Source: a virus
Taxonomy: Duplodnaviria; Heunggongvirae; Uroviricota; Caudoviricetes
Strand: one strand, 5' to 3'
DNA: 23,612 nt
IMG/VR virus record: IMGVR_UViG_2648501338_000019
The first letter of the stretch is position 1. Every line of letters starts with the position of its first letter. The position numbers and the translations under genes were made by a program. Positions 3,209 through 21,827 of this stretch are shown piece by piece. The notes under the pieces are model-generated. The model was given only the letters and a program-made list of their open reading frames with translations, had not been told where the DNA came from and ran no database searches.

Positions 3209-3223
3209 AGAATTACCTCTCTA

Positions 3224-4267
3224 TTAAGCTGCGTAGGCGTAGGCGTAGGCGTAGGCGTAGGCGTAGGCGTAGGCGTAGGCGTAGGCGCTGTAGTTGGTGT
3301 CATAGATAGCGTCATGCAGTGCCATCTGTGCTTCGCGGATCTCGTCTTCGTTTACTTCAATCTCTTCTTGTTCTTCTTCGGTATCTTCCCAAGTGGTTTT
3401 GAATTTAGCCATAAAGTTATTGCGCAGGGATTCAAAGTTAGTAACAGGTGCGGATTTTTCTTCAACCGGAACTACTACCGGATCAGCTTCTTTCTGTTCT
3501 TCCTGTCCTACTTTTTCACCGTTACCCCAGCGATAGTTAAGGAGTTCTTCCAGTTCTTCATCAATGGATTTTTCTTCAACTGCTTCAACTTCAACCGCTG
3601 CTACTTCGAAAGTGGTTTCCTGCGCTGCCAGTTCAGCTTTCAGAGATGCGTTTTCAGCTTCCAGTTCAGCAATGCGTGCTTTCAGTGCTTCAACTTCGGA
3701 AGATTCAACCACTGCAACTTCTTCTTTAACTTCTTCAACTACTACCGGAGCAACTTCTTTCTGTGCTTCTTTTTTGCAGAAGAAGGAGGAAGTAACCTGT
3801 AATGCGTGGTTGTAGAAGGAACCGCCTTTAGCGGTGTTAACAGTACCAGAAACATCCTTTACAGTGGATTCAGTAGCAACAGTACGGAAGCGTTTTGCAA
3901 CTTCCTGGGTCTCTACGCCGTATTCGTTACGCTTGCTCTTGTGATGCATTACAGCACGGAAGCCGGAAGCAGTTTTAATAACAGCGAGATAGTAAGTTTC
4001 ATCGGCTTTAACAGCACGAGCGAAGCAATAAACGGATTCACCTTCTACCAGTGTAGGTTTAACGTGACGTTTGTCGAAACGGTTAGTGATCTGCCATTCA
4101 GCACCGTCTTTGATGCCAGCATTCTGACGCATTTCGGTCAGAGTCTTACCGGATACTACTTCAAAGGATTTGTCTTGTTTGCTTGCTTTACCTTCCATAA
4201 CGGTAATGTTCAGTTTGCCGTTGGATTTGATGAATAGGTTGAAGGTGATGCGCTTAGAATTTTTCAT
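3224..4267 (-). CDS. hypothetical protein (347 aa): N-terminal globular domain, acidic linker, leucine-zipper-like coiled coil, acidic region and a C-terminal (Ala-Tyr)9 dipeptide repeat
   Basis: Good SD (AGGAG) 11 nt upstream of the ATG on the minus strand; sensible amino-acid composition, whereas the overlapping plus-strand ORF 3197-3802 is a Phe-rich low-complexity antisense artefact; coiled coil EALKARIAELEAENASLKAELAAQ. Confidence 0.6.
   Translation of the reverse strand: MKNSKRITFNLFIKSNGKLNITVMEGKASKQDKSFEVVSGKTLTEMRQNAGIKDGAEWQITNRFDKRHVKPTLVEGESVYCFARAVKADETYYLAVIKTASGFRAVMHHKSKRNEYGVETQEVAKRFRTVATESTVKDVSGTVNTAKGGSFYNHALQVTSSFFCKKEAQKEVAPVVVEEVKEEVAVVESSEVEALKARIAELEAENASLKAELAAQETTFEVAAVEVEAVEEKSIDEELEELLNYRWGNGEKVGQEEQKEADPVVVPVEEKSAPVTNFESLRNNFMAKFKTTWEDTEEEQEEIEVNEDEIREAQMALHDAIYDTNYSAYAYAYAYAYAYAYAYAYAA
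3231..3284. repeat. perfect hexanucleotide microsatellite (GCGTAG)9, which encodes (Ala-Tyr)9 at the 3' end of the minus-strand gene
   Basis: Nine uninterrupted GCGTAG units read directly from the sequence, followed by a degenerate unit GCGCTG. Confidence 0.95.
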
Positions 4268-12565: not shown

Positions 12566-14572
12566 ATGCTTAAATTTCGCCGCGATCTTAACGGTTACGG
12601 TGGAGTTATTAACGAAGGGCAGAATGATCAATACGAATTTGAAATTGCTTTCTCCAGTGAACAGCCTTATCAGCGCCAATTCTGGGATGAGCAAAATCAA
12701 GAAATGGTGGTATTAGATGAAATTCTGGTACATACACCGGAAGCGGTTGATCTGTCTCGTCTGAATAATAACGCTCCGTTGCTGTTCAATCATAATTTCG
12801 ATAATCATATTGGTGTCGTTTGTAACGCTCGAATCGATGCGGATAACGTAGGTCGTGCTCTGGTTAAATTCTCTAAGCATGGCACTTTGGCTAATGATAT
12901 TCGTAATAAAGTCATTGAAGGTACGATGGAAAAAATTTCTGTCGGTTATGACATTAAAGAATATCACATCGACTACACCAAAGGACAATTGATTGTTACT
13001 AAATGGATTCCTCACGAGGTTTCATGGGTGTCTGTTCCCGCAGACGACACCGTGGGTCTGAATCGCTCTCTAAATACTATCACAGTTAATTTGGAGGCTA
13101 AACGCGATATGACTAAAGAACAAATCGAAGAAATCAAAGAAGAACAAGAACCCGCTCAGGTTGAAGAAACTCCGGTAGAAGAAAATAAAGAACCGGAAGT
13201 AGAAGAAACTCAAGAGCGCCAAGTTGAAGAGAATAAAGAAGATGAAAATCTCGAAGACGGAAAAGACGCTAAACATCCTGAAAGTGTTGATGATGATAGT
13301 TCAACTGTTCGGGAAACAGAAGAAGTAAAAGAAGAACGTGAAGCCGCTCCGGTTGAAGAAGAAAAAATCGAAGAAGTGGCTGAACGTTCCGAAGAAGACG
13401 AAGAAGAAATCCGAGCAATCGCTCGTGAGTTAAATATTAACGACGAAGAATTAGAACGCGCATTGGCAGTTAAAGATATGACGCCGGAAGCATTCCGCAC
13501 TAAGGCACTAAATAACATTACCAATGCTCAACGTAATAACGAACAAATTAATAAGGAACAAATCATGGAAAAAACTTTCGATCTTAATAACGTAATCCGC
13601 TCCCTGGTAGATGGCGACGTGCTCGGCGCTAACGAAGCTGAATATTCCGCTATGGCTGCTGGTGCTGCAATGCAGCGTGGTCGTGCTGCTCGCGGTGGCT
13701 CTGTATTCGTTCCGGCTGCTGCTCTGCGTGCTGCTTCCGAAGGTAACACCAAAGCTACTCTGACCGCTGTAACCGACGAAAAACTGCTGACCGAATCCTA
13801 TGTAGAAATGCTGCTTCCACAGTCTGTTCTGGGTCGTCTGGGTGTGACTGTTCTGTCTGGTCTGAATAGCCCGATTGCAGTACCAAAAATGACTGCTTCC
13901 AGCGTCGAAGCCTTTGGTTTTGTTGATGAAAATGGAAGTGCCCCCGAATCGAAGGCTAGCTTTGAAAACGTGAAAATGGCTCCGAAAACTTTTGCTGGTG
14001 GCAACCCGATCAGCCGTCAGTCTCTGAAAACTGTTCCGAATATTGCTACCCTGATCACTGATCACATTAACAAATCTGTTCGGATCAAACTGGAACAACT
14101 GATTCTGTCTGACAAAGACAACGAGCGCGGTCCGAAAGGTCTGGTTAAGCAACTGGTAGACGGTGGTCGCGTTACTAAGAAAGCCGCTTTTAGCTACAAA
14201 GACTTCCTGAAAGAAATTGCAGCACTGACCGACGCTGGCGTTCCGGCACAGTCCATCAAGTTTGCAATGAGCGGTGCAACTGCTGCTGAACTGGAATCTA
14301 CCCTGAAAGATAACGGCGTTTCCGGTTATATCATCGAAAACGGCAAACTGGCTGGTTACGATGTAGTTACTTCTGGCGTTATTCCGGCAGACCACATCGT
14401 TCTGGGTGACTTCTCCGGTATCATGATCGGTGAATGGGGTGGTCTGGAACTGGATATGGACGACACCACTTACCGCGCACAGTCTGCTATCGTTCCGCGT
14501 ATCTGGGTAGACCTGGACTTCACCGTAGTTCAGCCGGAAGCTCTGAAAGTTCTTCACATCTCCGCTGAATGA
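12566..14572 (+). CDS. prohead protease - acidic scaffold-like linker - HK97-fold major capsid protein fusion (668 aa); TGA stop
   Basis: N-terminal region resembles HK97-family prohead protease, the middle about 130 aa is E/K-rich (scaffold/delta-like), the C-terminal about 330 aa resembles HK97-type major capsid proteins; lies between portal and neck genes. Confidence 0.8.
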   Translation: MLKFRRDLNGYGGVINEGQNDQYEFEIAFSSEQPYQRQFWDEQNQEMVVLDEILVHTPEAVDLSRLNNNAPLLFNHNFDNHIGVVCNARIDADNVGRALVKFSKHGTLANDIRNKVIEGTMEKISVGYDIKEYHIDYTKGQLIVTKWIPHEVSWVSVPADDTVGLNRSLNTITVNLEAKRDMTKEQIEEIKEEQEPAQVEETPVEENKEPEVEETQERQVEENKEDENLEDGKDAKHPESVDDDSSTVRETEEVKEEREAAPVEEEKIEEVAERSEEDEEEIRAIARELNINDEELERALAVKDMTPEAFRTKALNNITNAQRNNEQINKEQIMEKTFDLNNVIRSLVDGDVLGANEAEYSAMAAGAAMQRGRAARGGSVFVPAAALRAASEGNTKATLTAVTDEKLLTESYVEMLLPQSVLGRLGVTVLSGLNSPIAVPKMTASSVEAFGFVDENGSAPESKASFENVKMAPKTFAGGNPISRQSLKTVPNIATLITDHINKSVRIKLEQLILSDKDNERGPKGLVKQLVDGGRVTKKAAFSYKDFLKEIAALTDAGVPAQSIKFAMSGATAAELESTLKDNGVSGYIIENGKLAGYDVVTSGVIPADHIVLGDFSGIMIGEWGGLELDMDDTTYRAQSAIVPRIWVDLDFTVVQPEALKVLHISAE

Positions 14573-14701
14573 ACTAACGTAGAACCATCTGAACCTTCCC
14601 CCGATTTGGGGGAAGAAAATCTGATTCCATCTCAGGAAGAAGAATCTCAGACGGTTACGGCGAAAGCCACAGTTAAAAAACAACGTAAAACTAAAGAATA
14701 A
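14573..14701 (+). CDS. in-frame 42-codon extension after the capsid gene TGA (TNVEPSEPSPDLGEENLIPSQEEESQTVTAKATVKKQRKTKE, then TAA TAA); candidate readthrough product
   Basis: Frame checked codon by codon; no start codon with an SD inside; homologous to the extension after the major tail gene. Confidence 0.4.
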   Translation, partial: TNVEPSEPSPDLGEENLIPSQEEESQTVTAKATVKKQRKTKE

Positions 14702-14706
14702 TAATT

Positions 14707-14734
14707 AGCCCTGCCTAACGGTGGGGCTTTTTTG
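14707..14734 (+). terminator. rho-independent terminator (AGCCCTGCC-TAAC-GGTGGGGCT + T6)
   Basis: 9-bp stem with two G-U pairs followed by TTTTTTG; near-identical copy after the major tail gene. Confidence 0.8.
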
Positions 14735-15469: not shown

Positions 15470-16303
15470 ATGAATATTACACAAGATAACTTAGATATTT
15501 TCACTGGATCACATGTTGAAGTGTCGATCTCTAACCAGATAGACAATCAGGTCGACTTTTTCGATCCTAGCTTTAGTTCTATGGAGAACATCGCAGCATT
15601 CCCTACGCTAACCGAATCCACAGAGATAGAAACTCTGGAAGAGTACGATCAGGACGCTACGGGGAAACTTGCTGGTTATCGTAGACTGGAACCGACAACA
15701 CTCACATTAAACCGTGTTCTTGACGATGAACATCAAGCAATGTTGATGAAAGCGGTAGAGGATAAAACACCTTTACGCTTCCGTATGTTCTATGTTGTGA
15801 ACTCTGGCTATAGTGCTGCTAACACAGGGTACTTTTGTATATTCGATGCTTACGTCACATCACATAAAACCCGTGGTAGTGATAACAAAGCTGTAACACT
15901 GGAATTTAAACTTGAACCAGATGGCGGGATTTTGGCAAGGGGTATTGCTACCGAAGGCCGGATCTTACGTCAGGGTGATTTTGGTTTGGGTGCTGGTGTA
16001 AATCCATTCACGGGTCCGATTGACAGCGAGGCATTAGCCGGAAACCGTTTCGTAACTTACAAGGGAACTGCTAGCGGTAATCCATATTCAACCGACACAG
16101 CATTAATTCACCTTCAAGCTAATGAGCATGGCGCATGGCAATTAACCTGTAATACTTCTGGCGCACCGCGTTTACGTGTCCGAAATATTCAGGAAAACGG
16201 TCGTTCTGAATGGATCAAGGTATATTCCACCAATGAGAAACCGACACCTAGCGAAATTGGCGCAGTGGCTAAGACTGACCGGATCGATTTCGGCGAATAC
16301 TAA
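15470..16303 (+). CDS. hypothetical structural protein (277 aa), candidate collar or fibre-anchoring protein; C-terminus shares the KPTPxE(I/L)G motif with the fibre
   Basis: Located between neck genes and the fibre gene; C-terminal NEKPTPSEIGAVAKTD parallels GDKPTPTELGVYSKAEVD and KKPTPEQLSQGEIA in the fibre. Confidence 0.5.
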   Translation: MNITQDNLDIFTGSHVEVSISNQIDNQVDFFDPSFSSMENIAAFPTLTESTEIETLEEYDQDATGKLAGYRRLEPTTLTLNRVLDDEHQAMLMKAVEDKTPLRFRMFYVVNSGYSAANTGYFCIFDAYVTSHKTRGSDNKAVTLEFKLEPDGGILARGIATEGRILRQGDFGLGAGVNPFTGPIDSEALAGNRFVTYKGTASGNPYSTDTALIHLQANEHGAWQLTCNTSGAPRLRVRNIQENGRSEWIKVYSTNEKPTPSEIGAVAKTDRIDFGEY

Positions 16304-16384: not shown

Positions 16385-19300
16385 ATGCAATCAATCCAAT
16401 TTAAACGCACACAGACGGCGGGTAAAAAACCAACGCCGGAACAATTATCACAGGGTGAAATCGCCTTACAGTTGGCGGATCATGTGATTTACACCAAAGA
16501 CAAAAATAATAACGTAGTCCAAATTAGTGTTTCTCCAGAAAAACACGCTGAACTGAATACGAAAGTAGACAATAACAAAACTAGCACTGACCGTGTTATT
16601 GCTTCCAACAAACAAGAAGCCGCTAATAATCTGGCTAGTGCTAAAGCTGAACTGAATCAGACTATCACTTCTACCCGTGATGCTCTCAATGCTTCAATCA
16701 CTGCTGGCGACACCGCAGCCAACAAACGAATTGATGCTTTGACTACCACAGTAGGTAACAATAAAACCGAAGCGGCTAACGCTCTGGCGGCTGCTAAGAC
16801 TGAACTGAATCAGACTATTACTTCAACCCGCGATACTATCAACGCAACAATTAACAAGAACAAGACAGATATTAATGCACGAGTTGATCAGACTAATACC
16901 AACGTTACTAACTTAACGAATACTGTCTCAGCAAATAAATCAGCCATAGAAACGACCGTAGCAAATAATAAACGCGATGCCGACACGAAGATCACCAATC
17001 TTACGGGGACAGTTAATAGCAACCATACAGCAATTAACAACAAGGTAGACCAGAATAAATCTTCTACTGATGCCGCAATTGCCGCAGCTAACCAGCGAAT
17101 TGATTCTATTGAAGGTAGTGCCGATGCTGCTTACATCAAGAAGAATACCAACACTTACCATCACGGCTATCTGTTAACCAAAACAGCTAACTATTTTGAT
17201 GATGCTGGTGCTCGTAACCTTGATTATTTTGGTGCATTCCGTCCAAACAATGCCGAAGGTTGGGGTAACTTAATCCTTAACATTCCTCATTCTGGCGGTA
17301 AAGCACACGGTCGCGGTTTTGAGTTCCACTATGGGTCTAGCTCATCTCAAGTTAAAACCTATGGCTTTGATAAAGATGGTAATAAGCGATTCAGCTACCG
17401 CATGTATCACGAAGGTGATAAGCCGACTCCGACTGAATTGGGTGTGTATAGTAAAGCCGAAGTTGATCAGATGTTCATCAAGAACGTTAGAATGACCGTT
17501 CCTTCTGGTGATGCTACTCGTGGATACTTCAAGATCGCAACCGCTACGATCCCACAGAATGGTCGAATGGTAATGCTTCGTATCTTCGGTGGTAATGGTT
17601 ATAACGTTAACTCTTATGATCAGGTTGACTTTGTAGAAATTGTCATCCGTTCCGGTAACAATAACCCGAAAGGCGTTAGTATTGCTGCTTATCGTCGAAA
17701 TGCTCTGAACGTTCATCAAGTATTTGCGGTTAATACTTCCGGTGATAACTACGATATCTACGTTAACTACGGTCGTTACACCGATAACGTTATTGTCGAA
17801 TACGGTAAAACTGATGGCGTTACTCTGACAGTACATGATGTTCCTGAATTAACTCTCGTTAAACCTTCTGTTGGTGTTACCGATGCTCGTGTTATTACGA
17901 TGTTCAACACCGAAAACAAAGCCGGAACGTTGATGTTTGATAATAACTCACAAGCAACCTATGATATTGTGAGCCTTAATAACGTACCAGACAACAATAA
18001 AAAATATATGCGTAAATTCCGCAGTCGTGCGGCGGAAACAATATGGCATGAAACTGTTCAAGGTGATGTGTATCGTTTGGCTACTGGTTCCACCGACCAA
18101 AAAGAAGTATTAAAAATTGTTGGTAGTGATGGTTTATTTGTCGATAGACTTCATCTGCAAGGCAATAACGCGATTCGTATGTGGCGTCCTACTGGTCGTA
18201 GTAACTATTTTGAATATATGGATCAGCGAGACGGGGCTAATAAACGTCAAGGCTGGTTTGGTTTTGGTTCTACAGATACTAACGATTTTCAATGGTATAG
18301 TGACGAAGGTAAAAACTTTGTTAAATTAGAAGCAAGTGGTCAAGTATCTTTAAGCACAGGTGCTACCAAAATTGTATACACCAATGGTCAATATGTAGCT
18401 GCTAACAGTGATGCATTCCGTATGATTTACGGTAACTATGGTGCATTCTGGCGTAATGATGGTCAAAACGTATATCTTCTGTCTACTGCCGAAAATGATA
18501 AATTTGGTGGTTGGAACGGCTATCGTCCATTCATTTACAATCTGGGTAGCGGTAATGTTACTTTGGGTGGTGATGGTAACGAAGGTGCATTAGTCTTAGA
18601 ACGTGCAAGTCGTGCTGCTCGTTTTGCTGGAAACACATACATTAAAGGCCAATATTTAACATTTGATGCTGGTGCTGGACAATCCCGCGACTATTTCCGT
18701 TTGAGTCATTGGGGCGATAGCAATAACGCTCGTGATAACGTTATACAGCTTGAAGATAGTAAAGGTGCTCACTTCACCACTGAACGTACTTTAGCAACTG
18801 GTGCGATTAAAACTAAATTCTTCGGTGATTTGGAATCTGCTGGTCTGATTCGCTGGGGTAAGGGTACAGCTACTTCTAGTTTCAATATTCGTGCATGGGG
18901 CGCTGATGCTCGTAAACAAGTATTTGAATGTGCTGATGAAAGCGGTTGGCATTGGTATACCCAACGTCCGGGCGGTCCGGGTACTACGGCAATTGAGTTT
19001 GCCATCAACGGTACTGTTAAGCCTCAAGCAATTCACACTGGCGGTAATATCACGCTTAACGGTGCTGATATTGAATTTAAGCGCACTGGTAATAAGCATT
19101 TGTGGTTTAGAGATCCGAATGGCTTAGAACTAGGTTTGATGTATTCCGATGATGCTGGTGTTATTCGCTTCCGTGGTCAGAAACAAGCCCAGACGTGGAA
19201 ACTTGCGGATAAGATGATCCAGTTGGAATCTGGTACTGTAACCGGTGGCGGTAATGGCCTGATTCGTGGTGAAGTTGCTGGCGGTAGTTGGGCTAGCTGG

Positions 19301-19885
19301 CGTGACCGTGCTGCTGGTCTTATGGTTGGGTGTCCTCAATCCACCAACTCGGCACATAACGTATGGAAAGCGACGCATTGGGGTAAATATCACATTGCAG
19401 CAATGGGTGTGCACGTTCCTGACGGTACTATCGGTAACGCTCTTGTTCGTCTCCATGTTCATGATACTAACTTTGACTTTAACGCTGCTGGTGACTTTAC
19501 CGCAGGTCGTAACGGTTCGTTTAACGATGTTTACATTCGCTCTGACTCCCGTTTGAAGATTAACAAGGAAGAATTACAGGACGGCGCATTAGAGAAAGTA
19601 AACTCACTGAAAGTCTACACCTACGATAAAGTTAAATCTCTTAAAGACCGTAGTGTGATTAAACGCGAAGTAGGTATTATTGCTCAGGATCTGGAAGAAG
19701 TATTGCCGGAAGCAGTAGGTATTCAATCCACCGAAGATCCAGAAAATCCAGAAGCAATCAAGACTATTTCTAACTCTGCTGTCAATGCTTTAATCATCAA
19801 AGCTATGCAGGAAATGGACGCCAAATATAAAGCCCAGATCGAAGCATTACAGAAAGAAATTGCCGAACTGAAAGCAACTAAATAA
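16385..19885 (+). CDS. long fibre protein (1166 aa) with a tandemly duplicated N-terminal rod segment and a C-terminal intramolecular chaperone (peptidase S74-like) domain
   Basis: C-terminus RSDSRLKINKEEL...VYTYDKVK...GIIAQDLEEVLPEAV matches the autoproteolytic chaperone domain of phage fibres and tailspikes; N/T/S-rich beta-type sequence in the middle. Confidence 0.85.
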   Translation: MQSIQFKRTQTAGKKPTPEQLSQGEIALQLADHVIYTKDKNNNVVQISVSPEKHAELNTKVDNNKTSTDRVIASNKQEAANNLASAKAELNQTITSTRDALNASITAGDTAANKRIDALTTTVGNNKTEAANALAAAKTELNQTITSTRDTINATINKNKTDINARVDQTNTNVTNLTNTVSANKSAIETTVANNKRDADTKITNLTGTVNSNHTAINNKVDQNKSSTDAAIAAANQRIDSIEGSADAAYIKKNTNTYHHGYLLTKTANYFDDAGARNLDYFGAFRPNNAEGWGNLILNIPHSGGKAHGRGFEFHYGSSSSQVKTYGFDKDGNKRFSYRMYHEGDKPTPTELGVYSKAEVDQMFIKNVRMTVPSGDATRGYFKIATATIPQNGRMVMLRIFGGNGYNVNSYDQVDFVEIVIRSGNNNPKGVSIAAYRRNALNVHQVFAVNTSGDNYDIYVNYGRYTDNVIVEYGKTDGVTLTVHDVPELTLVKPSVGVTDARVITMFNTENKAGTLMFDNNSQATYDIVSLNNVPDNNKKYMRKFRSRAAETIWHETVQGDVYRLATGSTDQKEVLKIVGSDGLFVDRLHLQGNNAIRMWRPTGRSNYFEYMDQRDGANKRQGWFGFGSTDTNDFQWYSDEGKNFVKLEASGQVSLSTGATKIVYTNGQYVAANSDAFRMIYGNYGAFWRNDGQNVYLLSTAENDKFGGWNGYRPFIYNLGSGNVTLGGDGNEGALVLERASRAARFAGNTYIKGQYLTFDAGAGQSRDYFRLSHWGDSNNARDNVIQLEDSKGAHFTTERTLATGAIKTKFFGDLESAGLIRWGKGTATSSFNIRAWGADARKQVFECADESGWHWYTQRPGGPGTTAIEFAINGTVKPQAIHTGGNITLNGADIEFKRTGNKHLWFRDPNGLELGLMYSDDAGVIRFRGQKQAQTWKLADKMIQLESGTVTGGGNGLIRGEVAGGSWASWRDRAAGLMVGCPQSTNSAHNVWKATHWGKYHIAAMGVHVPDGTIGNALVRLHVHDTNFDFNAAGDFTAGRNGSFNDVYIRSDSRLKINKEELQDGALEKVNSLKVYTYDKVKSLKDRSVIKREVGIIAQDLEEVLPEAVGIQSTEDPENPEAIKTISNSAVNALIIKAMQEMDAKYKAQIEALQKEIAELKATK

Positions 19886-19941: not shown

Positions 19942-20415
19942 ATGTCTCAGCAATTCAAAGATATTTTTACTGGTGGTCTGGTAAGTCTGTTCTATCACGC
20001 GGACACCACTAATACCGCTCTCGACCACGAAAGCTACGAAGAAATTAAAGAGTGTGCTGGTTTTCCTGAAACTGGTATCGAGCGCGGTACTGTAGAAGTT
20101 AAATCCTTCTCTTCTCAGTATAACCGTAAACTGGTAGGGAAGCTGAACGTTCCTGATCTGACTCTGACCGTTAACTACATCCCAGGCGATGCGGTACATG
20201 AAAAACTGATCAAAGCTGCCGAAGACGGTACTCGTATTCAGATTAAAGTAGAATATTACGTTGACGCAGCAAAACAGACTGGTATTCGCACCGCTTTCAA
20301 CGGCTTCATTTCTAAAGTTGCTATGAACGGTGGCGATGAAGAAGTTGTAACCAAAGAGTTTACCTTCGCGGTGGATGGTGCTCCGCTGAAACAGCAAATC
20401 TTCACTGCCGGATGA
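19942..20415 (+). CDS. major tail (tube) protein (157 aa); TGA stop
   Basis: Size, composition and position immediately upstream of the chaperone and tape-measure genes; conserved TTAAGGGGTAAT initiation motif. Confidence 0.7.
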   Translation: MSQQFKDIFTGGLVSLFYHADTTNTALDHESYEEIKECAGFPETGIERGTVEVKSFSSQYNRKLVGKLNVPDLTLTVNYIPGDAVHEKLIKAAEDGTRIQIKVEYYVDAAKQTGIRTAFNGFISKVAMNGGDEEVVTKEFTFAVDGAPLKQQIFTAG

Positions 20416-20535
20416 ACTAACGAAGAACTTCCCGAACCGGAACCACAGCCGGAACATGAAGCGGTGGTGATTCCAGAAGTAGAAGAAGTTACGGCGAAAG
20501 CCACAGCTAAACGAAGCCGCAAGGCTAAAGATTAA
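20416..20535 (+). CDS. in-frame 39-codon extension after the major tail gene TGA (TNEELPEPEPQPEHEAVVIPEVEEVTAKATAKRSRKAKD, then TAA); candidate readthrough product
   Basis: Frame checked codon by codon; shares the opening TGA ACT AAC G and the closing VTAKAT-x-K...RK-x-K motif with the capsid extension. Confidence 0.4.
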   Translation, partial: TNEELPEPEPQPEHEAVVIPEVEEVTAKATAKRSRKAKD

Positions 20536-20540
20536 TTATA

Positions 20541-20570
20541 AGCCCTGCCTTAATGGTGGGGCTTTTTTAT
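20541..20570 (+). terminator. rho-independent terminator (AGCCCTGCC-TTAAT-GGTGGGGCT + T6), homolog of the one at 14707
   Basis: Same stem sequence as the capsid terminator; loop differs by one inserted base. Confidence 0.8.
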
Positions 20571-20583
20571 TGGAGTAATCAAA

Positions 20584-21090
20584 ATGGCGAATGTCGTTAA
20601 TAAGCCTGGCTGGGTCGGGTCATCTGCTGTTTCTGTAACTGGTCAACGATGGATGAGCGCAGCAATGAACGCATTAAAGGTTAGTCGCCCAGCTAACATG
20701 AGTGCGATGTGTGGTCGTGGTATGGATACGGTTGTAGCTACTGCTGCGTGGTCTACTTCATTGGGTAATAACTGGGGTGTAACTGCTTCAAACTATCCAG
20801 TAACTGACATGCGCGGTAAAGGATCTATGGAGAACCCCGAAAACGTGGGCGTAGGGCGTCTGATTGGCGTTATCGTTGGTCAATTCAATGGCGGTACTCC
20901 TACTATGGCTGTATATCTCCAGAACGGTAGAGCGGGGAATATAACCGTTAATTTGGGTGGTGCTGCTGTCACTGTTCCTTATAACAGTATGCAAAGCGGT
21001 TTTCATTACTATTGGTTAAGCAATCCTCCGGCTGCTTTACTCAATAACATTAAGAAGACTGGCACTAAGCAGACTTTGAAAATCTCTTAA
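20584..21090 (+). CDS. hypothetical protein (168 aa), G/S/T/N-rich beta-type; likely minor structural protein or moron between the tail tube and chaperone genes
   Basis: ORF with SD GGAG; no family recognised. Confidence 0.45.
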   Translation: MANVVNKPGWVGSSAVSVTGQRWMSAAMNALKVSRPANMSAMCGRGMDTVVATAAWSTSLGNNWGVTASNYPVTDMRGKGSMENPENVGVGRLIGVIVGQFNGGTPTMAVYLQNGRAGNITVNLGGAAVTVPYNSMQSGFHYYWLSNPPAALLNNIKKTGTKQTLKIS

Positions 21091-21135: not shown

Positions 21136-21444
21136 ATGAATCTGAATGAAATGCTGAAAGCTCTTTCTCCGAAACGTGAATCTTTAACCCTCGGAGGATT
21201 TACGTTCTATGCTCGCCCTATGTCGGTACAAGAATTTAATGAACATGTTTTCAATACTGATAAAAAAGACCGTGATGAACGCTCTATTCTTCGTTGTATT
21301 GAAGATGAAGACGGTAAGCCAGTATTTGAATCTATTGAACAAGTTAAGGCATTGTATACTAGCGTCCGCAGCGAATTAATCGGCTTAGTTGCTCAAGCAT
21401 CATTGATGAAAGATGCGGCGGTAATTGAAAACGAGGTAAAGTAA
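21136..21444 (+). CDS. tail assembly chaperone (lambda gpG-like position)
   Basis: 102-aa ORF directly upstream of the tape measure gene, with an overlapping ORF in the -1 frame, which is the canonical G/GT arrangement. Confidence 0.6.
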   Translation: MNLNEMLKALSPKRESLTLGGFTFYARPMSVQEFNEHVFNTDKKDRDERSILRCIEDEDGKPVFESIEQVKALYTSVRSELIGLVAQASLMKDAAVIENEVK

Positions 21445-21452
21445 ACCCGCTC

Positions 21453-21827
21453 TTGAATTTTTATTTTCGGCAAATGATGCGTCGGGGCTTGAGTAAAGAT
21501 GAGATGGATAATATGCCAATTACGCTATTTTGGGCGTTGCATATATTCGATACATATCTTGAACCACAAAGCCCCCTGTTTCAAGATGCGCGACATGCAC
21601 AGTCGATGTATTACATGCACGTTACATCTCCTAACATGACTCGTGAATGGTTGAATAAAATCAATGTTAACCAATTCCGAATGATTAAGGACGACAAGCA
21701 ATTTAAAACGCAAGAAGAAATAAAAGAAATTGCTCGTAAGAAAGAGGAAGAACGTAACGCTGCTTTGGTTGATAGTTTTTTCGACGCTTCATTATTACAA
21801 AAGCTCAAGAGCGGACAATTGGGGTAA
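21453..21827 (+). CDS. T-like ORF in the -1 frame relative to the chaperone gene; probably expressed only as a G-T fusion via programmed -1 frameshift
   Basis: The -1 frame opens at 21429, 16 nt before the G stop; the track's start at 21453 is a TTG with no SD; ends 3 nt before the tape measure ATG. Confidence 0.5.
   Translation: MNFYFRQMMRRGLSKDEMDNMPITLFWALHIFDTYLEPQSPLFQDARHAQSMYYMHVTSPNMTREWLNKINVNQFRMIKDDKQFKTQEEIKEIARKKEEERNAALVDSFFDASLLQKLKSGQLG

Follow-up and report, generated by a model that had tools for sequence, protein, structure and literature searches.

The minor virion protein A1 of the single-stranded RNA levivirus Qbeta carries an extension of 196 amino acids, which forms a folded domain and is essential for infectivity. 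The coat gene of this Escherichia coli phage ends in the readthrough hexanucleotide UGA ACU, at which 3–5% readthrough, presumably by tRNA-Trp, gives the extended minor virion subunit (PMC13517186). In T7, a −1 frameshift gives about 10% of extended capsid protein, 10B, and the capsid displays proteins that are fused at its gene's end (PMC1635266). Frameshift-derived extensions of other phages show an 'indifference' to +1, −1 or in-frame decoding (PMC5009743), and the C-terminal add-ons of the tail tube proteins of lambda, T5, YSD1 and SPP1 project outside the tube (PMC8718954). Here, the DNA of the IMG/VR virus record IMGVR_UViG_2648501338_000019 (Caudoviricetes; 23,612 nucleotides (nt); the whole stretch is called the window below) was analysed for a related arrangement at the 3′ ends of its major capsid and tail tube genes, where a UGA stop is followed in frame by an open extension, a second stop and an intrinsic terminator, together referred to as a cassette. 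Programmed UGA readthrough, yielding minor C-terminally extended capsid and tube subunits, is the best explanation of the sequence comparisons given below and is considered probable.

The elements of the tube gene and its cassette were as follows.

19942..20412, + strand: coding region of the major tail tube protein (157 amino acids), open reading frame (ORF) to 20415; identified from the ORF list, PHROG, Pfam and AlphaFold2 (AF2)/Foldseek

20413..20415, + strand: UGA stop of the tube gene and proposed readthrough site, context GGA UGA ACU AAC G

20416..20532, + strand: in-frame tail extension of 39 codons, translation TNEELPEPEPQPEHEAVVIPEVEEVTAKATAKRSRKAKD

20488..20506, + strand: 19-nt core common to the capsid cassette, GTTACGGCGAAAGCCACAG, encoding VTAKAT

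20533..20535, + strand: TAA closing the tail extension, TAA in all relatives of the tail cassette

20540..20570, + strand: intrinsic terminator of the tail cassette, a 10-bp G+C-rich hairpin (20540–20564) with a T-run

The corresponding elements of the capsid gene were as follows.

12566..14569, + strand: coding region of the prohead protease–scaffold–major capsid fusion (668 amino acids), ORF to 14572; identified by Pfam, PHROG and structure match

14570..14572, + strand: UGA stop of the capsid gene, context GAA UGA ACU AAC G

14573..14698, + strand: in-frame capsid extension of 42 codons, TNVEPSEPSPDLGEENLIPSQEEESQTVTAKATVKKQRKTKE, with the end ...TVTAKATVKKQRKTKE

14595..14615, + strand: 8-bp hairpin CTTCCCCC-GATTT-GGGGGAAG, 22 nt after the capsid UGA, fold z-score −4.5

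14699..14704, + strand: tandem TAA TAA closing the capsid extension

14707..14733, + strand: intrinsic terminator, hairpin 14707–14728 with a T-run

The anatomy of the tail copy (157 amino acids, TGA, 39 in-frame codons, TAA) was thereby borne out as given in the initial annotation. The 157-amino-acid protein is a lambda-type tail tube protein, equivalent to the N-terminal tube domain of gpV. It matched PHROG 158 ('major tail protein', E-value 3e-21), scored 28.3 bits against Pfam Phage_TTP_11 (PF16460), 0.1 below the cut-off of 28.4, and gave an AF2 model with a predicted local distance difference test score (pLDDT) of 80–94 in the core, for which the best PDB matches in Foldseek were the lambda gpV tube domain (8k36_A/7t4f_A; E-value about 5e-7 (4.6e-7), probability 1.0). 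The end of the protein coincides with the end of the gpV tube domain (residues 1–156). In the tail extension, an acidic linker rich in Pro (TNEELPEPEPQPEHEAVVIPEVEE) leads to a basic tip (VTAKATAKRSRKAKD), and residues 159–198 were predicted by AF2 to be disordered (pLDDT <50, no secondary structure). The 668-amino-acid protein is an HK97-fold major capsid protein with a fused S78 prohead protease: Peptidase_S78 (PF04586, E-value 9.7e-10) and Phage_capsid (PF05065, E-value 4.1e-26) were found in one polypeptide, which matched PHROG 617 (E-value 1.7e-94) and the capsid chain 8gta_A (E-value 2.9e-28). Its scaffold-like middle (window 13122–13360) contains three diverged direct repeats of ~47 nt encoding Glu-rich segments (EEIKEEQEPAQVEE and similar). 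Readthrough would be expected to give the junction peptides QQIFTAG-X-TNEELPEPEPQPEHEAVVIPEVEEVTAK in the tube protein and VLHISAE-X-TNVEPSEPSPDLGEENLIPSQEEESQTVTAK in the capsid protein, where X is the residue at UGA; with Trp inserted, the former would read ...QQIFTAG-W-TNEELPEPEPQPEHEAVVIPEVEEVTAK.

Homology of the two cassettes, as claimed in the initial annotation, was confirmed by an alignment that runs throughout and contains a sole internal gap of 9 nt, which keeps the frame. The sequence said to be identical at the two stops, TGAACTAACG, was exact at each (as a 10-mer alone it is not beyond chance), and the shared internal stretch, the 19-mer GTTACGGCGAAAGCCACAG, was found exactly twice in the window, with 0 occurrences expected in shuffles; it was conserved in nearly all relatives. 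The common peptide ending VTAKAT-x-K-[KR]-x-RK-x-K-[ED] fitted both extensions. The two terminators were near-identical, as had been noted, and were the two top-ranked sites (20540–20564 and 14707–14728) in a scan of the window for terminators predicted from sequence. Conservation is highest in blocks of nucleotide sequence (the stop-codon 10-mer, the 19-mer and the terminator), a pattern that could also be explained by an untranslated 3′ untranslated region (UTR)/terminator cassette with a function at the RNA level (terminator, mRNA-stabilizing 3′ end or 3′-UTR-derived small RNA), duplicated or gene-converted, in which the open frame is incidental. The 19-mer holds a GGC-GAAA-GCC mini-hairpin, the long capsid cassette folds well (z = −4.5), a GRPP variant changes GGTGG-GACGT-CCACC to GGCGG...CCGCC, which looks compensatory, and capsid and tube terminators are alike within each relative. 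Against such an RNA element, folding of the tail cassette compared with shuffles was unconvincing (z = −1.8), no Rfam match was obtained, and TGA is confined to the capsid and tube genes; this explanation was regarded as unlikely, for these reasons and for those given with the coding analyses below.

Stop-codon choice was counted for the 15 + strand ORFs of the window taken as genes. TAA was used by 13 of the 15, often as TAA-T or tandem TAA, and only the capsid and tube genes ended in TGA, in both cases TGA-A. These are the two proteins of highest copy need, for which a strong stop would be expected. The longest in-frame run past the stop of any other window gene was 20 codons (runs entering the next gene excluded). 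UGA followed by A is the leakiest stop codon, and an effect of a 3′ A on UGA suppression was reportedly described by Engelberg-Kulka in 1981. The hexanucleotide of Qbeta, UGA ACU, is present unchanged at both sites. An E. coli UGA reporter gave about 2–4% readthrough, set by competition between Trp-tRNA-Trp and release factor 2 (RF2), and readthrough varied with host physiology, namely cyclic AMP, tRNA-Trp level and temperature (PMC10570021). A −1 or +1 frameshift reading of the window extensions was rejected, as the extensions lie in frame 0 and both shifted frames are closed by stops; no slippery heptamer was seen in the last codons before either stop in the window. The 8-bp capsid hairpin, 22 nt after the UGA, may stimulate readthrough. 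It was missing from the tail cassette and from short capsid variants, and is therefore not essential.

The window represents the late region, with the virion genes, of an E. coli temperate siphovirus of roughly 35 kb. The capsid cassette region matched 54 of 5,426 complete E. coli genomes, always in the chromosome. A near-identical prophage of about 35 kb was located in E. coli UTAK-14, beside a truncated ycdX and ending near a serine-recombinase-type gene; there, the Prokaryotic Genome Annotation Pipeline (PGAP) ends the capsid gene at TGA. The capsid cassette of UTAK-14 (NZ_CP168998) shows 100% identity to that of the window, and its tube allele is one without the extension; in the IMG/VR record UViG 2648501730_000022 both cassettes match those of the window exactly. 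In a near-identity search of 50,697 phage genomes only the tail-fibre gene was matched (by RB49-like myoviruses), the phage type being absent apart from the distant DCP80, which also has the nearest tube protein among sequenced phage isolates (43% identical).

For close comparison, 33 IMG/VR contigs with a capsid 82–100% identical to that of the window were collected, giving 34 capsid loci with the window. Tube loci were typed in 28 cases, window included, type A being the window's allele at an identity of at least 90% (15 contigs and the window, 16 in all). Metagenome contigs were additionally scanned with the shared 19-mer, which gave 16 true extra cassettes (10 capsid, 6 tail). TGA-A with an open in-frame extension was present at 34/34 capsid loci, despite differing last codons (..HISAE, ..HISE, ..KMGEE, ..QIGE), at 16/16 type-A tube loci and in 16/16 metagenome cassettes, the latter including a capsid 3′ allele ..VVQKKGE and a 40-codon tail variant. 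Extension lengths were 28, 42, 43, 44 or 45 codons in capsid genes of the close set and 25 in Providencia, all in frame, and 36, 39 or 41 codons at type-A tube loci. When the cassettes were aligned as DNA, all indels located between the two stops were multiples of three, and indels of 1–2 nt began immediately past the second stop, where the terminator loop and the spacer lie. The basic endings of the capsid extension in the close set were KKQRKTKE, KKERKTKAK and KK[VA]GRPPKAK(E); across capsid and tail copies the tips differed in DNA yet remained basic (KKQRKTKE, KKERKTKAK, KKVGRPPKAK, KRSRKAKD, KRGRKAKN, KRRKSK). One metagenome capsid cassette ended in the tail-type AKRGRKPKE, which shows exchange between capsid and tail cassettes. 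An untranslated RNA element would not account for indels confined to multiples of three between the stops with 1–2-nt indels just downstream, nor for a basic tip retained through unrelated codons.

Coding potential was measured as a codon-usage log-likelihood trained on the window's own genes, extensions excluded. In bits per codon, the capsid extension scored 0.69 in frame 0, −0.84 in +1 and −1.10 in +2, and the tail extension 0.61, −0.95 and −1.10; 40-codon windows of real genes scored 0.62±0.25, −0.77 and −1.18, respectively. Frame 0 scored best in 29/29 unique extension variants. For pairs of the same length, the ratio of nonsynonymous to synonymous polymorphism (pN/pS) was 0.36 in frame 0, 1.02 in +1 and 1.00 in +2 for the tail extension, and 0.56, 0.76 and 1.04 for the capsid extension. 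Over all pairs, the tail extension had a frame-0 pN/pS of 0.43 and the capsid extension one of 0.67 (long form) or 0.20 (short form); the last 100 codons of the genes gave 0.11 (tube) and 0.27 (capsid). The bias to synonymous change, by which the initial annotation proposed to judge the cassettes, was thus positive but modest (tail 0.36–0.43 in frame 0 versus about 1.0 in the other frames; capsid 0.2–0.67). Its argument that the kept frame reflects selection on the translated product was supported by more than 50 related cassettes, all with TGA-A and an open frame, by the indels in multiples of three and by the frame-0 codon usage. The extension is under real but relaxed constraint, as would be expected of a disordered linker that contains one short conserved motif. 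Codon usage like that of genes and a pN/pS below 1, both seen in frame 0 alone, likewise speak against a cassette acting as RNA alone.

More distant relatives were examined for tails at the same genes. A Providencia prophage with a capsid 44% identical to that of the window reads ...NSLPA-TGA-ACTAACGAAGAG... (site TGAACTAACGAAGA), followed by 25 in-frame codons (TNEELPEEEPLPVATEKSTKRRKSK), TAG and a terminator. The putative recoding site is thus far better conserved between Providencia and E. coli than the capsid gene before it. Other relatives have short, Ala/Lys-rich tails joined to the capsid in frame, without an intervening stop (L071, L074, L076, L077, L081, L085 and Salmonella L119). After a core ending in ...DDRLFLYEK, these tails were GTPAEAKAAKQ, GEAEAGETRKAK and GTPAEVKAAQKASA; on other core ends, L071 had ...AEAKSKA, L074 ...QAKAPASK and Salmonella ...VEASKAK. 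Such direct fusion of a tail to a capsid or tube protein adds to the evidence against an untranslated element.

A further group has an A_AAR Lys codon at the same spot, 3–4 codons before the 0-frame stop (L082, L078, L079/L084, L001, which is DCP80, and L037/L038/L073, which are Edwardsiella tarda), and behind it the −1 frame stays open over 18–33 codons and has a basic end immediately ahead of the terminator. The individual capsid sites were as follows.

L082: GA A_AAA_AAG, −1-frame tail ...DGSLTDTGAQAAPVRKPRALKVTK

L078: GT A_AAA

L079: GA A_AAA, −1-frame tail ...AKAKAKAKAETAE

DCP80: GA A_AAG

Edwardsiella tarda: GT A_AAG CAA GGG TGA, −1-frame tail ARVIPTGREEVSVKSGRKPKTDN

The A_AAA_AAG of L082 is the dnaX-type heptamer, and L082 and L078 share a hairpin ~17 nt downstream, with a compensatory change. 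The −1 capsid tail of E. tarda (VIPTGREEVSVKSGRKPKTDN) resembles the E. coli peptide ...LIPSQEEESQTVTAKATVKKQRKTKE. Capsids at most 40% identical had no tail, and a scan of GTDB species representatives with the capsid alignment found only 3 distant loci, 0 with a tail. In the tube protein of E. tarda the extension is fused, ...PDAPLATYHMNVIPEAVAAKEK (...NVIPEAVAAKEK), short fused basic ends are present in Salmonella (..GLRK) and Providencia (..SARK), and more distant tube proteins end acidic, without an extension. From these sequences, the family seems to arrive at a basic capsid C-terminal tail in three ways, by fusion, −1 frameshift and readthrough, in agreement with the indifference to the decoding route reported for other phages (PMC5009743). 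In the Hafniaceae metagenome contig L122 (5671 region), PAGV-TAA-AKSKD* was found where the related L071 has GAA (PAGAEAKSKA*), apparently a simple nonsense mutation that interrupts a fused tail.

The occurrence of fused tails, together with this GAA to TAA event in a Hafniaceae prophage, would also suit a decaying relic, in which ancestral fused tails were truncated by a nonsense TGA and the codons downstream are drifting; the extension-free tube allele, which is common, and the weak constraint on the linker fit it as well. A relic does not agree with the same TGA-A across E. coli and Providencia, whose capsids are 44% identical, and across the capsid 3′ alleles ..HISAE, ..KMGEE and ..QKKGE, nor with a downstream frame that never gained a stop or a frameshift despite many indels. 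The stop was never sense, TAA or TAG in more than 50 cassettes, and the same arrangement stands on two genes of one phage. Decay was accordingly rated as quite improbable.

Protein databases were searched for tagged products. A profile of ten variants of the extension (tag) against 5.8 billion proteins returned no sense-codon fusion and only a 33-amino-acid gene-caller ORF from an internal TTG. This public 'hypothetical protein' (P0048) starts at the TTG inside the capsid extension and is a gene-call artefact of the cassette. A 198-amino-acid 'tube protein' with W at the stop (P0001; L036, ENA ERZ27280761 k141_243218, an 842-nt contig) was set aside as an artefact of gene calling with code 4, because its DNA has TGA. 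The public call of the 33-residue peptide MGEENLIPPQEEESQTVKAKATAKKVGRPPKAK from TTG, and the in-frame GTG GTG at 20467–20472 in the tail copy, raise the question of a micro-ORF initiated independently within the extension. Neither candidate start has a Shine-Dalgarno sequence upstream, the TTG lies inside the 8-bp hairpin, the 28-codon capsid variants and the Providencia cassette lack both starts, and the conserved stretch starts right at the TGA (TGAACTAACG), so that independent initiation was considered very improbable.

Scans of the window found no tRNA and no Rfam family reaching the gathering score, hence no suppressor tRNA and no selenocysteine insertion sequence (SECIS). ARAGORN, run on the complete UTAK-14 prophage region, called one atypical 91-nt tRNA-Gln(ttg) (L035, 20926–21016, minus strand) inside a 140-amino-acid head–tail gene. 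This call is probably a false positive, as nothing was called at the corresponding place of the window, and its anticodon would not read UGA. Decoding of the UGA as selenocysteine, for which UGA is the codon and a hairpin follows the capsid UGA, or by a phage-borne suppressor tRNA, is hardly credible given the lack of any SECIS or other Rfam match, the absence of the hairpin from the tail cassette and short capsid variants, and a tRNA-free window with the lone UTAK-14 call taken as false.

Domain searches with Pfam gave no Ig-like, FN3 or Big domain in the extensions (25–45 residues). Capsid variants of relatives ending ...AKKVGRPPKAK scored 14.2–14.7 bits with AT_hook, below the cut-off of 17.4; an AT-hook assignment was rejected, since these matches are sub-threshold and the tags of the window (KKQRKTKE, KRSRKAKD) lack the GRP core and gave no match.

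Several observations weigh against programmed readthrough. At 12 of the 28 typed loci another tube allele (about 59% identical) is present with TAA-T directly before the terminator and no extension, so that the tail extension is dispensable in nature. The Hafniaceae contig shows that an in-frame stop in such a tail can arise by nonsense mutation. Variable sites were distributed over the codon positions as 32/32/41, a weak third-position excess, and purifying selection on the linker is weak, with the long capsid extension at a pN/pS of 0.67. The close relatives are recombining mosaics, and the pairwise counts, being non-independent, are given without a P-value. Neither folding nor alignment brought out a downstream RNA structure shared by every cassette. 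RF2 is more active in natural E. coli isolates than in K-12, and readthrough could be below 1%.

With programmed readthrough still the preferred explanation, the following course of events is proposed. Most ribosomes would terminate at the weak UGA-A and give the normal subunit, and one to a few per cent would insert an amino acid at UGA, most likely Trp via near-cognate tRNA-Trp, as in the E. coli reporter. These ribosomes would stay in frame through another 39 codons in the tube gene or 42 in the capsid gene and stop at a tight TAA just before the intrinsic terminator. Each virion would then carry a handful of subunits with a disordered tag, composed of an acidic, Pro-rich linker and a Lys/Arg tip (VTAKAT-x-K-[KR]-x-RK-x-K), displayed at low copy outside head and tail. 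External display is to be expected, because the C-termini of lambda-type tube and T7-type capsid proteins point outward. The suggestion in the initial annotation of surface display or a shared partner is consistent with the modelled tube fold, as the tube protein has its C-terminus at the point where the tube domain of gpV stops, and the Ig domain that follows in gpV projects outward. Taking about 415 capsid subunits for a head of T=7 and some 200 tube subunits as typical copy numbers, we infer a few to about twenty tags on the head and a few on the tail.

What the tag would do is the least secure part of the proposal. By analogy with the Ig-like domains added by frameshifting, the most plausible role of the polycationic tip would be weak, non-specific electrostatic adhesion to anionic surfaces such as lipopolysaccharide, capsule, mucus or DNA; this assignment, although favoured over other roles, is tentative and rated at less than even odds. 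A wider idea is more doubtful still. It holds that leaky UGA-A, charged tag, tight TAA and terminator form a portable recoding cassette, which recombines from the 3′ end of one structural gene to that of another and across phage genera, and which displays a few copies of one polycationic tag, AT-hook-like in some variants, on head and tail. As UGA readthrough depends on host physiology (PMC10570021), the state of the host at lysis would set the surface chemistry of the progeny virions and so their adhesion or host range, and one and the same lineage might switch freely between fusion, −1 shift and readthrough to tune the dose of the tag.

The surroundings of the tube gene were recorded as well. 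The gene and its cassette sit between a gp37 homologue (fibre, 16385–19885) and a gp38-type adhesin gene (20584–21090). The fibre, of 1166 amino acids, carries Gp34_trimer and Peptidase_S74 domains; its DNA is 77–87% identical to gp37, the gene for the distal long tail fibre in RB49-like T-even myoviruses. Among the relatives, the tube allele with the extension was followed by gp38 in 16/16 cases (window included) and the allele without it in 0/12. Directly upstream of the fibre gene, and kept in all relatives, a 277-amino-acid protein (window 15470–16303) has a tube-like N-terminal part of 150 residues (PHROG 158, E-value 1.3e-8; 30% identity to the 157-amino-acid tube protein) and an extra C-terminal part of ~120 residues; it may be a tube-like ring protein anchoring the side fibre. 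The tail-assembly-chaperone gene (21136–21444) ends in GTA_AAG_TAA (21436–21444), with the next ORF (21453–21827) in its −1 frame. On this sequence, a −1 slip of tRNA-Lys at A_AAG before the chaperone stop would make a G-T-like fusion, and the window would then hold three recoding events. Elsewhere in the window, a 12-nt tandem repeat (GCGTAG)n at 3219–3296 lies within a minus-strand ORF (3224–4267) for a 347-amino-acid protein with no Pfam match and a C-terminal run ...YSAYAYAYAYAYAYAYAYAYAA*, which has eleven Tyr-Ala pairs counting the interrupted first.

If correct, the present interpretation would make this, as far as we know, the first natural case of programmed stop-codon readthrough affecting structural genes in a tailed dsDNA phage, with the Qbeta signal UGA ACU used twice in one phage with one shared tag. 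No earlier description of natural stop-codon readthrough in such genes was found in a literature search of incomplete coverage, and earlier work may exist. The three apparent routes of the relatives offer a natural experiment in the evolution of recoding, in which the dosage logic of minor virion subunits is testable, and the site offers a naturally tolerated position for low-copy display on the head and tail of a coliphage. Such products escape annotation pipelines: PGAP ends the gene at the TGA, and a code-4 artefact accounts for one public protein.

Compared with the systems described at the outset, the features that are new to our knowledge are the proposed readthrough in a tailed dsDNA phage, its placement on both head and tail genes, one homologous cassette including the terminator, a short charged tag in place of a folded domain, and the fused and −1 solutions within the family. 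The lambda G/GT chaperone frameshift has a canonical site in the same phage, and the A_AAG/A_AAA Lys codon also fronts the −1 capsid tails of the relatives, but it concerns another gene and is a frameshift, not readthrough. The G/GT product is not in the virion. The likeness to AT-hooks is limited to some relatives, whose capsid variants end ...AKKVGRPPKAK, whereas the tags of the window have no GRP core. With SPP1 gp17.1* and lambda gpV the tube extension shares its place, at the C-terminus of a lambda-type tube domain and probably outside the tube; the SPP1 add-on, made by frameshifting at 3:1, is dispensable (PMC8718954), and the extension of the window differs in having no folded Ig or FN3 domain and in its proposed decoding by readthrough. 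The Listeria phages PSA, A118 and A500 and the Lactobacillus phage A2 come close in that head and tail-shaft genes both give a longer second product through recoding at the 3′ end (PMC5009743). Theirs are +1 or −1 frameshifts, with Ig-like domains where characterized, whereas readthrough is proposed here for both genes and the extensions are homologous, belong to one cassette including the terminator and are short, charged, disordered tags. In T7 and T3, recoding at the capsid gene's end (10A/10B) likewise gives about 10% of an extended minor capsid protein, with an extension that in T7 is not Ig (PMC1635266, PMC5009743), and the prophage relatives seem to employ a −1 shift in this position; the window differs by its putative in-frame UGA readthrough and by its capsid protein, a siphovirus protease–scaffold–capsid fusion. 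The closest likeness in signal is to Qbeta, also an E. coli phage with a coat gene ending in UGA ACU and an extended minor virion subunit. In contrast to that ssRNA levivirus, the present case is a dsDNA temperate siphovirus with putative extensions of 25–45 residues, predicted to be disordered, on two structural proteins, of which at least the tail copy is dispensable in nature.

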